Shown here in pieces: positions 28,725-33,258 of a DNA stretch of 64,000 nucleotides (positions within the stretch are counted from its first letter, which is position 1; the number at the start of each line of letters is the position of its first letter). The DNA lies in UHGV virus genome UHGV-0098755; one strand, written 5' to 3'. The stretch is from a virus. A program made the position numbers and the translations under genes. The notes under the pieces are model-generated. The model worked only from the letters and a program-made list of their open reading frames with translations. It was not told the DNA's origin and made no database searches.

Positions 28725-29513
<789 letters not shown>

Positions 29514-29570
29514 TCATTTATTGCAGCAAAAACGAATTGTGATAAATATTATTTTTAAGGAGGACAGCGC

Positions 29571-29771
29571 ATGGTACAAAAATTAATGGCACTTGTTAAT
29601 GCCATCAAAGGTAATAAAAAACGTATAGCTTTTACTATTTCTGCTATGATAGGAATTTTACTTTGGAATTTTGTTTTATCGCCAGTTGCTATTGCTCATG
29701 GCGTTAGTATTCCAGTAGTTACTCTTGATACATTCGTAGATTTAGCATTTGCTTTAGTTGGGTTAATTTAA
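29571..29771 (+). CDS. Small membrane protein (66 aa), + strand within a - strand region
   Basis: Strong SD AAGGAGG; hydrophobic; late-promoter-like GATAAATA at 29541-29548. Confidence 0.5.
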   Translation: MVQKLMALVNAIKGNKKRIAFTISAMIGILLWNFVLSPVAIAHGVSIPVVTLDTFVDLAFALVGLI

Positions 29772-30796
29772 ATCTTAGCATATTTAGATAACCGCATTTT
29801 AGCCATTAACCCCTGGGCAATATTATTTTTCATATATTCCATAATTTGTTCAGGGGTTGCACCTTCCTTTCTAATCATATCATTAACATCTTTTGATTTC
29901 CAGGGAGATTTATCCCAAAACATAACCCTTTCTCCTGCATCAACTAATTTAGTCATTCGTTTAATAGTGTCAGGGTGACGAGGTTCATTATCTAAGACCC
30001 ACACTCGTCTATCTTTAAATGGAACAACTTCTAGGTCTAATTGACCACCCGTAATAGCTATACCATTTTCAATAAAAAGTGAATCTATAGGTCCTTCTAG
30101 AACATATACATCACCATCTTTAACCCGTTCGACTCCATAGATTTTTGTTGCCTCAGGATAAGCTTTGATGGTGATATATTTTTGAGGAGCATCTTTCTTT
30201 AATGCACGTCCTTGAAAAGACTCAGCTTTTCCATTAGCATTATAAATTGGAATAACAAGACGAGGCTCAGAAATTTCCTTTTTATATGTTCCCGGTGCTA
30301 TGCTATTAACTAATTTAGGCCATTCGGTTGTAAACCAAAGATATTTCCATTTATCCTTTGGAATACAACGAGCTTTTACATATTTTATAACTGGATGGTC
30401 TTCCACCAGTTTATCTAATCTAACGCATGACGGAAGAGATTTAATTATTTTCTTCTCAGGTTGTTTAGGAAGTTCTTTAGGTTTTTCTACTGGACGACTT
30501 TTACCTTTTTCTTTTCTTATTTCAAAGATATACTCACGATATAAATCAGGTTCAAACTCCTTTAAATATATTCCGATTGGTGCATGATAGTTACAGTTAT
30601 AGCAATGAATATTTCCTTCATTATTATCGCCATAATACCATCCACGGGCTTTATTTTGATCGGTTTTTGAATCTCCACAAACAGGGCATCTAAACCGTAA
30701 TTTAAAAGTTGAACTATTATTTACTTGTGTGAATTTAGGTAAATGAGCTAGCGCACGATATGCAAACTCATTATCAATCCAAGGTATTGATGACAT
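29768..30796 (-). CDS. 61: DNA primase gp61 (342 aa)
   Basis: N-terminal zinc ribbon CPVCGDS...CYNCNYH plus TOPRIM; 342 aa. Confidence 0.9.
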   Translation of the reverse strand: MSSIPWIDNEFAYRALAHLPKFTQVNNSSTFKLRFRCPVCGDSKTDQNKARGWYYGDNNEGNIHCYNCNYHAPIGIYLKEFEPDLYREYIFEIRKEKGKSRPVEKPKELPKQPEKKIIKSLPSCVRLDKLVEDHPVIKYVKARCIPKDKWKYLWFTTEWPKLVNSIAPGTYKKEISEPRLVIPIYNANGKAESFQGRALKKDAPQKYITIKAYPEATKIYGVERVKDGDVYVLEGPIDSLFIENGIAITGGQLDLEVVPFKDRRVWVLDNEPRHPDTIKRMTKLVDAGERVMFWDKSPWKSKDVNDMIRKEGATPEQIMEYMKNNIAQGLMAKMRLSKYAKI

Positions 30797-30799
30797 TTT

Positions 30800-30964
30800 T
30801 TACTCTTCTTTTTCTTTAGATTCCTCTTTTTTCTTTTTAGGAATCTGTTCAGGACCTTTATTTACTACAGCGCCTGACGTTGTTCCAGTAGAGATATTTT
30901 CAGGATTACCACCTGAATCTCCAGCGACCATATCTTCTTTGATAAATTCTTTAAACGTTTTCAT
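30800..30964 (-). CDS. Small hydrophilic protein (54 aa), 61.1 position
   Basis: Hand-translated MKTFKEFIKEDMVAGDSGGNPEN... Confidence 0.45.
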   Translation of the reverse strand: MKTFKEFIKEDMVAGDSGGNPENISTGTTSGAVVNKGPEQIPKKKKEESKEKEE

Positions 30965-30976
30965 ATTAGCCTCTAA

Positions 30977-31270
30977 TTATTCACCTACCACTTCAGCGAT
31001 GATATTTTTATTATTGAAGTTTTTATCACAATACAGAACGTAATTATACTGCATTACACCACCAGACTTAAGCTGTTTTTGTACTTCAGCTTTCATTTCA
31101 GGGTGATCACGCTCAACAATATTCATAATATCTGCTTCAATCTGAGTTTCAACCTCAGTCTGATCTGCAGTCATAGACCATTCGCACAAATCTTTATCAT
31201 AACCTGCCATAGCAGGCTGAGCAGCACAAGAAGCCAAAGCAAAAATTGCAGCAAAAACAAATTTTTTCAT
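30977..31270 (-). CDS. sp: Spackle, periplasmic gp5-lysozyme inhibitor (superinfection exclusion), 97 aa
   Basis: 97 aa with signal peptide MKKFVFAAIFALASCAAQPAMA; T4 61.3 position. Confidence 0.65.
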   Translation of the reverse strand: MKKFVFAAIFALASCAAQPAMAGYDKDLCEWSMTADQTEVETQIEADIMNIVERDHPEMKAEVQKQLKSGGVMQYNYVLYCDKNFNNKNIIAEVVGE

Positions 31271-31330
31271 GATAATCTCCTCAGTAGTTTATGTTTATAT
31301 AGTATCTCAATTTCCAACAAAAGTAAACAG

Positions 31331-31630
31331 TTATTTTAAAACTTCTGCGTAATCACATGTTACAAACTGTTTCTCTAGCTTAACGATCTTACGAAAATAC
31401 CTTTTACACTGACGAATCTGTCGCTTCGTAGGACGTACAGCAAACTTAATAAATTCCACTCGACCAAATGGAGGACTTTCTTCTGCTGGAATATCTAACA
31501 CCAATTCCCACGTATCTGCAATAAGTGCTTTAAATTGTGTATTTTTCCTGACGTTATACGGAGTAGGTTTAAATAAAACAATATGCATATTATCCTCGGC
31601 AATCCACTTCACATACTTTCTTGTCATCAA
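31331..31630 (-). CDS. Basic small protein (85-99 aa), T4 61.4 position; candidate anti-toxin-antitoxin factor
   Basis: ORF adjacent to dmd; probable start at Met15 (about 31588). Confidence 0.5.
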   Translation of the reverse strand: MMTRKYVKWIAEDNMHIVLFKPTPYNVRKNTQFKALIADTWELVLDIPAEESPPFGRVEFIKFAVRPTKRQIRQCKRYFRKIVKLEKQFVTCDYAEVLK

Positions 31631-31772
31631 TGAAAGCTTTAACTAATGCTTTATTAACTTCAGCATACTGAGTAGTAGCCCATTGAACGTCATCTTTCAT
31701 CATTGTGGTTTCTTTAGTAAACATGCTTTCGTTCTTAAACCACCCCATAAAAACTACCTTTACCAATTCCAT
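31590..31772 (-). CDS. dmd: Dmd antitoxin against RnlA/LsoA (60 aa)
   Basis: 60 aa MELVKVVFMGWFKNESMFTKE...; T4 61.5 position. Confidence 0.7.
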   Translation of the reverse strand: MELVKVVFMGWFKNESMFTKETTMMKDDVQWATTQYAEVNKALVKAFIDDKKVCEVDCRG

Positions 31773-31830
31773 AACAATCTCCTCATTTAACCAACAAGAC
31801 TACTATACCATAGTCTCGTCAGCTTGTAAA

Positions 31831-33258
31831 CTAAAATTTTAATTCATTCGCCAAAGCATCTAACTGAGCTCGAGTGGATTCATTTCTTTGATAGCGGTTC
31901 TGTTCAGCCTGAATTTGTTGTGAACCTGCTACTTCACTCACTTCAGTTGGAGTAGAATCTTGTTCAATTTCTACCCATTTCTGATTTCCTTTTTGAACAC
32001 CCATCAAAAACTTATTCCATTTATTCTTATCACCATATCGTGATTTGATTTGCTTAATGAGTTGTTGTTCAGCAGCTGCTAACTCCTCAGTTTCAATGAC
32101 CGCAAGCATAAAATCAGCTGTGGCTGGAAGACCAGCAGATTCTGCAATATCGCTCATGTTAACATCAGAAGAATCCCAAGCTTGCTTACCAACCTGTGCT
32201 GCAGTCCAAAGAACAGTTTCGGTTTCAACAGCCAGAGCACGCAATTCTTCTGCGATGGCTTTAACAGTTGTGTAACTATTTTCTGAGTAAACTCTGATGC
32301 GGCAAGATTTACAAATACCTAGATAGTCGACAATAATGATCGTTGGAACAAAATTCTTCTTGAGCTTCAATTCGTTTAAAAGCGATCGAAATGTATTAGC
32401 GTCTGCTCCACCAGTAGGATATTGCTTAACGATTAAACGACCGAGAGTAGATTTCTCACGCCATTTTTCCATTTTTCCTTTATATTCAGCGTAAGAAATA
32501 TGCCCATCATCAATGTCATCAAGAGAAACATCGAGCATATTAGCGTCAATACGTTTAGCACAGACTTCTTCTGCCATTTCCATTGAAATGTAAAGAACAT
32601 TATGACCGAGCTGTAAATAATCTGCTGCCAATGAACACAATCCTAATGACTTACCAACGTTAACACCAGCCATTAAAACGTTCAGTGTTCCAGTCTCAGC
32701 TCCGCCTTTAGTAATTTTATTTAGAATTTTGAGTTTAAATGGAACCTTACGAGCTTTATTCATATAAGATAGCCAACGTGCTTCATAGTCATCCATCCAA
32801 TCATGACCAACGTAGCTATCAAATGAAATTGATAATGCTTGGCGCATGATGTCAGGAATAGCACCTACATCTGGCATTTTCTTATTTCGTTTTTCCGGAG
32901 GAAGCTCAGCATTAGTTTGAATTTCGATTATTTTAGACGTAGCATTAAACATCGCCCTTTGCTGAACATATTTTTCTGTTTCTTTTACTAACCAGCTGTG
33001 GTCTTCCGGAGAATCAGCCAGTTTTGAAATAAGTGTTTTTACACCAGAATATTCTGTTTCAGTAAATGAACTATTTTCTAATGCAACATTTAACGCATTA
33101 ATAGATGGAACGCTATGATACTCATTGACATGAGATTTAATTAATTTGAATGTATTTTTAGCTGGACCACTTTCAAAATATTCTGAATCCATATATGGCC
33201 AAACTTTTGAAAAATAAGCTTGATCAAATATGAGATGAGAAAGAATAATTTCTACCAC
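31831..33258 (-). CDS. 41: Replicative helicase gp41 (475 aa)
   Basis: DnaB-like, Walker A GVNVGKS. Confidence 0.9.
   Translation of the reverse strand: MVEIILSHLIFDQAYFSKVWPYMDSEYFESGPAKNTFKLIKSHVNEYHSVPSINALNVALENSSFTETEYSGVKTLISKLADSPEDHSWLVKETEKYVQQRAMFNATSKIIEIQTNAELPPEKRNKKMPDVGAIPDIMRQALSISFDSYVGHDWMDDYEARWLSYMNKARKVPFKLKILNKITKGGAETGTLNVLMAGVNVGKSLGLCSLAADYLQLGHNVLYISMEMAEEVCAKRIDANMLDVSLDDIDDGHISYAEYKGKMEKWREKSTLGRLIVKQYPTGGADANTFRSLLNELKLKKNFVPTIIIVDYLGICKSCRIRVYSENSYTTVKAIAEELRALAVETETVLWTAAQVGKQAWDSSDVNMSDIAESAGLPATADFMLAVIETEELAAAEQQLIKQIKSRYGDKNKWNKFLMGVQKGNQKWVEIEQDSTPTEVSEVAGSQQIQAEQNRYQRNESTRAQLDALANELKF

Follow-up and report, generated by a model that had tools for sequence, protein, structure and literature searches.

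The closest described counterpart of the locus considered here is the cluster 61.1-61.2(adfA)-sp-61.4(tifA)-dmd of phage T4, designated the 'anti-TA island' by Srikant et al. 2022 (PMC9391042) and lying within the annotated T4 map order 61, 61.1, 61.2, sp, 61.4, dmd, 41. Gene 61.4 received the name tifA once T4 had been evolved experimentally on toxIN hosts, and gene 61.2 is adfA (anti-DarT factor A) (PMC9391042). It is the TifA protein, not its mRNA, that neutralises ToxN, with which it co-precipitates; deletion of tifA causes a roughly 100-fold loss of plating on chromosomal toxIN, and the T2 homologue was also found to inhibit ToxN (PMC9391042). The RNA-binding element of TifA is a basic C-terminal helix with a Pro-Thr cap, and the protein traps ToxN in a large ribonucleoprotein; the substitutions P53A/T54A and K55A/R56A/R59A abolish both RNA binding and inhibition, and F41S or F41H gives stronger inhibition, F41 being the weaker form (PMC10853763). 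The neighbouring Dmd mimics an antitoxin and inhibits two toxins, RnlA and LsoA (PMC9391042), and Spackle, the product of sp, acts in the periplasm, where it inhibits gp5, the tail lysozyme of superinfecting phage (PMC7677548). A first-pass annotation of the present DNA had placed factors against ToxIN and DarTG among the T4 61.x genes without giving gene numbers, and this is accurate, the genes being tifA (61.4) and adfA (61.2), respectively (PMC9391042).

The window, that is, the whole 64-kb stretch of DNA that was analysed, derives from a Tequatrovirus (T4-like phage) that is approximately 96-97% identical to T4. Over the 2.6 kb around the interval of interest, identity to some 500 deposited T-even genomes is 95-97%. 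A 25-kb stretch of the window found its best matches in the phage collection searched at only about 96-96.5% identity and in 5-7 pieces, and a best match of about 96.5% broken up in this way indicates that the phage is a mosaic that is not present as such in that collection. An Rfam scan of the entire 64-kb window at the gathering threshold returned no RNA family. The interval is bounded on the left by the DNA primase gene 61 (29768-30796, minus strand; a 342-aa ORF with 339 of 342 residues identical to T4 gp61, and gene 61 in the T4T annotation) and on the right by the replicative helicase gene 41 (31831-33258, minus strand; a 475-aa ORF, gene 41 in T4T and its relatives). Between them, the four ORFs listed in the first-pass annotation are all present on the minus strand, and they are not chance ORFs because they match Pfam (T4_Spackle, DUF7279, Dmd) and PHROG families. 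Three plus-strand ORFs (31079-31339, 30939-31043 and 31705-31842) were rejected as genes, having no PHROG family and running antisense to conserved genes.

With high confidence, we regard this interval as the minimal natural version of the T4-type 'anti-TA island', consisting of 61.1, sp, tifA and dmd with an empty accessory slot. Gene identities, the gap relative to T4 and the states of the slot were read directly, and the biochemical activities discussed below are those published for near-identical T4 proteins. The window shares with T4 the gene order, strand, spacing and position of the early promoter, and the proteins are 96-100% identical; it differs from T4 in the absence of the 615 bp of AdfA, in single substitutions in TifA (I83V) and Dmd (I22T) and in four substitutions in Spackle. 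Neither the individual elements nor their arrangement is new, and the locus is in this sense ordinary. Its significance is mostly one of correct annotation, in that the basic ORF can be named TifA and the missing gene adfA.

The alignment to T4 between primase 61 and helicase 41 contains a single clean 615-bp gap. It lies at window positions 30975/30976, its T4T counterpart being positions 2022-2636 of the locus (L001); what is missing is nearly all of gene 61.2, starting with an ATG that overlaps the stop codon of sp. T4 gp61.2 matches the Pfam family AdfA (PF23813) with 455 bits, and tblastn searches of all 64 kb with T4 AdfA and with its 118-aa T2 paralogue gave only chance matches (E≥1); T4 AdfN (gp30.3) likewise gave only chance matches in the 64-kb window. 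The earlier suggestion that one gene of the T4 61.1-61.5 series is absent is thus borne out, the gene being 61.2/adfA, and the alignment yields no full 61.1-61.5 complement. The non-coding gaps from primase 61 to helicase 41 measure 3, 12, 60, 1 and 58 nt, so that a 61.2-sized gene cannot fit, as had been supposed. The close adjacency of sp and 61.1 also holds, although the spacing had been given as 13 nt and is actually 12 nt (30965-30976, minus strand), exactly where T4 has its 615 extra bp.

This 12-nt spacer, TTAGAGGCTAAT in the mRNA sense, carries the ribosome-binding site of 61.1, and the whole junction, GAATAATTAGAGGCTAATATGAAAAC, joins the left half of a T2-type sp junction to the 61.1 start. 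We infer that it is the expected product of a crossover within the repeated motif TAGAGGYTARTATG. Recombination of T4 at microhomologies of 6-10 bp is documented in the literature. A simple microhomology deletion of T4 adfA was considered and set aside, as it leaves extra bases to be accounted for (TAATTAGAGG versus TAGAGG) and a T2-type sp junction fits better.

A 70-nt probe spanning the empty junction had matches covering at least 80% of the probe in 31 records, including RB7 and Sfk20, and a 401-nt junction probe was found in one piece in RB3, RB5-10, W143 and Hafnia phage IsaacDaniel, among others. The empty junction is hence present in at least 31 Tequatrovirus records, a count that is a lower bound, as is that of at least five records for colinearity over the full interval. 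For comparison, the interval as such is carried by about 503 records, AdfA-type genes by 487 and the 118-aa gene by 333. In five genomes (vB_EcoM-CHD94UKE2, G3F7, G3F10, NIC06P2 and RPN226), the stretch from primase end to helicase start is colinear with the window over 1198-1201 bp at 96.5-97.4% identity; like the window they have neither adfA nor extra genes, and they show only point differences, none of them being identical. The exact minimal arrangement is accordingly already in the public record. The comparison across T-even genomes that the first-pass annotation had called for therefore shows the empty slot to be a recurrent arrangement and the minimal arrangement a natural variant already in the databases; the absence of adfA from the window is a natural polymorphism.

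The slot between sp and 61.1 occurs in four states: with adfA (T4), with a 118-aa gene (T2 and HY03, 357 bp in both), with adfA followed by the 118-aa gene (vB_Eco_BGP) and empty (window). In the Pfam AdfA model, the 118-aa protein covers the C-terminal half (positions 113-211) and scores 32.5 bits against a cut-off of 27, and BLASTP aligns it to T4 AdfA at 34% identity over 103 residues, a similarity that is weak (E=0.006) when the 14-residue tail common to both is left out. All cassettes end in a near-identical 43 nt (...GATGACCAAATTTTTAATGCTTTTATGAATAGAGGTTAATATG), with one mismatch in the adfA copy of BGP, and each is preceded by the TAGAGGYTARTATG ribosome-binding-site/start motif. The slot would most likely have lost or exchanged its cargo by recombination in the TAGAGGYTARTATG motif bordering each cassette. 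The 118-aa gene lies at 2147-2503 of the T2 locus (L002, PV958097), 2350-2706 of HY03 (L003) and 2359-2715 of BGP (L004). Its 14-residue tail is identical to that of adfA, and in the alignment it has a Cys where AdfA has its key His.

Among the better known relatives, T2 resembles the window in having no full-length adfA, in its type of junction between sp and the next gene, in an identical Dmd and in a TifA that is one residue apart, but it differs in carrying the 118-aa gene in the slot and a 181-aa gene between dam and dam.1. The latter position is occupied by a 181-186-aa gene in T2, HY03 and BGP and is empty in the window. This gene (L002 117-662, L003 305-865 and L004 305-865; PHROG 8706) adjoins the gene for the Dam GATC methylase, contains a D...ExK-like motif and shows weak, sub-threshold Pfam matches to the DpnII (GATC) restriction endonuclease. 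The window has, in its dam to dam.1 intergenic region (29505-29570), a separate 45-bp gap relative to T4. RB3, RB5-10 and W143 share with the window an identical empty 61.1-sp junction, but they differ in an 84-aa goF-like gene between sp and 61.4 and in a different C-terminal tail of TifA, and RB3 differs further in a divergent 63-aa Dmd (65% identity). This sp-tifA position, filled in RB3 and W143, is empty in the window. The 84-aa gene (mRNA metabolism modulator, PHROG 2980) is found at 2149-2403 of both the RB3 (L006) and W143 (L007) loci; it was considered as a duplicate of TifA and rejected, being goF-like and unrelated to it. No dam is annotated upstream of dam.1 in the stretch fetched for RB3 and W143, the upstream gene in W143 being a dCTP pyrophosphatase. 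The island can thus be seen as a conserved core of genes (61.1, sp, tifA and dmd) plus accessory slots whose cargo varies among T-even phages, a picture that is useful for host-range prediction and for the choice of therapeutic phages against strains with DarTG, ToxIN or RnlAB.

The direction of change at the sp-61.1 slot can be read in two ways. It is possible, though we doubt it, that the empty slot is ancestral and that adfA and the 118-aa gene are later, moron-like cassette insertions rather than genes lost in the lineage of the window. The window is indeed free of any trace of the shared 43-nt 3' coding end of the AdfA family, the modular cassette borders reuse the same ribosome-binding site, and two further slots of the island, dam-dam.1 and sp-tifA, are filled in some phages only. 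Against this, AdfA homologues occur in 487 records and the empty junction in 31, and 255 of those 487 AdfA records are only 60-80% identical, a level of divergence similar to that described in the literature for RB69-group homologues. Moreover, the spacer of the window consists of the T2-type sp/118-aa junction plus the 61.1 start, which fits a crossover in the repeated motif, and T4 readily deletes DNA at microhomologies. We tentatively favour loss or exchange of cargo over an originally empty slot.

The first-pass annotation had also proposed that the absence of a 61.x gene could change the defence-sensitivity profile of the phage, a proposal that finds no backing in the published DarTG1 data (PMC11257639). 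There, adfA was carried by only 13 of 17 tested Tevenvirinae, all of which except RB69 resist DarTG1; T2, described as naturally without an adfA homologue, is fully resistant, and deletion of adfA from T4 gave no DarTG1 phenotype, even when adfN was absent as well (PMC11257639). The main anti-DarTG1 factor is AdfN (gp30.3) (PMC11257639), and it is because AdfN does the work that the adfA deletion is silent and T2 is resistant. Published data of this kind argue against a large effect of the absent adfA on DarTG1 sensitivity.

A functional cost, in which a phage with neither adfA nor the 118-aa paralogue becomes sensitive to some DarTG-type system that T4 resists, strikes us as unlikely. It draws on the finding that RB69 AdfA(R164H) binds and neutralises DarT1, on the authors' suggestion that T4 AdfA may act by neutralising a different DarT homologue (PMC11257639) and on the window having no AdfA-family sequence at all; the silent T4 deletion, the resistance of T2 and the role of AdfN speak against it, as does the same empty slot in at least 31 deposited phages, which shows the state to be viable and recurrent in nature. 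Srikant et al. speculated on anti-toxin roles for neighbouring genes (PMC9391042). We see only a slim chance that phages whose AdfA slot is completely empty, with neither adfA nor the 118-aa paralogue, make up a genotype class of their own in nature that differs in its sensitivity to some as yet untried DarT variant, or that gp61.1, a conserved protein kept even in this minimal island, is a further anti-toxin factor. Finally, an assembly or laboratory-deletion artefact is a highly improbable source of the missing 615 bp. T4 does generate deletions quickly under selection, but nothing specific to this case speaks for an artefact; 31 deposited phage records, which come from several collections, hosts and countries, have the same junction, and the sp stop, the ribosome-binding site and the 61.1 start are all intact at the junction.

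The gene nearest the helicase, dmd (61.5; 31590-31772, minus strand), had been called a 60-aa Dmd antitoxin, and this identification is secure. The protein matches Pfam Dmd (PF17587) with 153.5 bits against a cut-off of 27 (E=2e-45) and PDB entry 5hy3_B, 'Antitoxin Dmd' (E=1e-36); it is identical to T4 Dmd at 59 of 60 residues, the exception being I22T, and fully identical to T2 Dmd. Given this near identity, the Dmd of the window probably neutralises RnlA and LsoA, and it would do so by binding these RNase toxins. Upstream of dmd, a putative early promoter of the dmd-tifA operon (31830-31802, minus strand; TTTACA-17-TATAGT with a TG extension) is the top promoter-like site of the scan of the region, with 10 of 12 matches. 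The total of sites in that scan was no higher than in shuffled sequence, which makes the scan alone weak; a T4 early promoter at the same position is said to drive dmd-tifA (PMC9391042). The tifA gene follows directly downstream of dmd, so that with the promoter-like site upstream of dmd, the layout is that of an early operon as in T4. A two-gene dmd-tifA operon may thus be driven by an early promoter located just downstream of gene 41.

The basic ORF beside dmd had been put forward as a candidate toxin-antitoxin inhibitor. This proved well founded, as it is gp61.4/TifA, the ToxN inhibitor (PMC9391042, PMC10853763). It occupies 31331-31588 on the minus strand, encodes 85 aa and is identical to T4 gp61.4 at 84 of 85 residues (I83V), so that the alternative of an ORF that has no 61.x homology does not apply. 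The protein matches Pfam DUF7279 (PF23945) with 72.7 bits against a cut-off of 24.5 (E=2e-20) and has a pI of 9.8, with 17 K+R against 9 D+E. Homologues are found in 676 records, 88 of which are at least 99% identical, and deposited phages include copies with 100% identity to the protein of the window; with TifA already characterised, the basic ORF is therefore no new candidate. A PDB sequence search returned no solved TifA structure.

Mechanical ORF calling had extended this gene to a TTG (31331-31630, 99 aa). The 85-aa length is preferred because the ATG at 31588 lies 1 nt after the dmd stop and has a GAGG 6 nt upstream, a layout as in T4, and because the PHROG profile begins at the first residue of the 85-aa form, in agreement with the T4 start. 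That the product is instead the 99-aa form beginning at the TTG at 31630 and overlapping dmd is scarcely credible, the mechanical call being its only prompt, since the 14 added codons lie inside the dmd coding sequence, no evident ribosome-binding site precedes the TTG and the characterised TifA has 85 aa (PMC9391042).

Direct reading of the 85-aa protein (...VRPTKRQIRQCKRYFRK...) shows that it carries P53, T54, K55, R56 and R59, i.e., the Pro-Thr helix cap and the basic cluster, together with F41. With 84 of 85 residues shared with the tested T4 protein, the TifA of the window would inhibit ToxN as an RNA-binding protein, with the basic C-terminal helix (P53-T54 cap, K55, R56 and R59) binding RNA and trapping the ToxN endoribonuclease in an inactive ribonucleoprotein. 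Since the residue at position 41 is F, a T4-like ToxIN phenotype is predicted, in which the phage would escape single-copy toxIN but not multicopy toxIN. The TifA (I83V) and Dmd (I22T) alleles of the window differ from the T4 proteins tested in publications. The I83V change (ATT to GTT; window 31337-31345, minus strand, at the 3' end of tifA) removes a GAAAT pentamer of T4, which is also missing near the tifA 3' end in T2, HY03 and BGP. GAAAU is the cleavage motif of E. coli ToxN. The loss is probably neutral, because ablation of a putative ToxN site at the tifA 3' end had no effect (Srikant et al., PMC9391042).

The sp gene (61.3; 30977-31270, minus strand) was correctly annotated as Spackle, 97 aa with a signal peptide. 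It matches Pfam T4_Spackle (PF25676) with 151.7 bits against a cut-off of 27 (E=9e-45) and PDB entries 6x6o, 6xc0 and 6xc1 (E=3e-60), and 93 of its 97 residues are identical to those of T4. The alignment to 7cn6, the mature chain as crystallised, begins at residue 23, with MKKFVFAAIFALASCAAQPAMA standing before G23, as would be expected of a signal peptide that has 22 residues and ends in AMA. Spackle acts in superinfection exclusion and is not a counter-defence protein. The view of the 61.x cluster as a counter-defence hotspot consequently holds for dmd and tifA and does not extend to Spackle or to 61.1, the latter having no known function. In what would be a second unit of the island, Spackle is expected to be exported to the periplasm and to block the gp5 lysozyme of superinfecting T-even phages; the genes for the 54-aa gp61.1 and the primase come after it. 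The 60-nt intergenic region between sp and tifA (31271-31330, minus strand), whose sequence was read directly, holds a GTTTAC-N18-TACTAT upstream of sp that resembles a T4 early promoter and may serve as the promoter of sp, though it scores below the threshold of the consensus scan. The only scan site in this stretch is a weak TAAACA-17-TATCAT at 31297-31269, with 9 of 12 matches. The ribosome-binding-site/start regions of sp and dmd form a 19-nt direct repeat (16 of 19 nt identical; 31265-31283 and 31767-31785, 502 bp apart) on either side of dmd-tifA. In T4 selected on toxIN, segments of the locus were amplified by way of similarly short homologies.

The remaining gene, 61.1 (30800-30964, minus strand), had been described as a 54-aa hydrophilic protein, which it is (GRAVY -1.21), and all 54 residues are identical to those of T4 gp61.1. 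It matches PHROG phrog_1823 over its full length (E=7e-34), and its position between sp/61.2 and primase 61 agrees with that family. It has no Pfam family, and a literature search found no function for 61.1. A further match of the peptide, to the last 47 residues of the 156-aa PHROG family phrog_2086 (E=2e-16), implies that other phages have the 54-aa gp61.1 as the C-terminal module of a larger protein.
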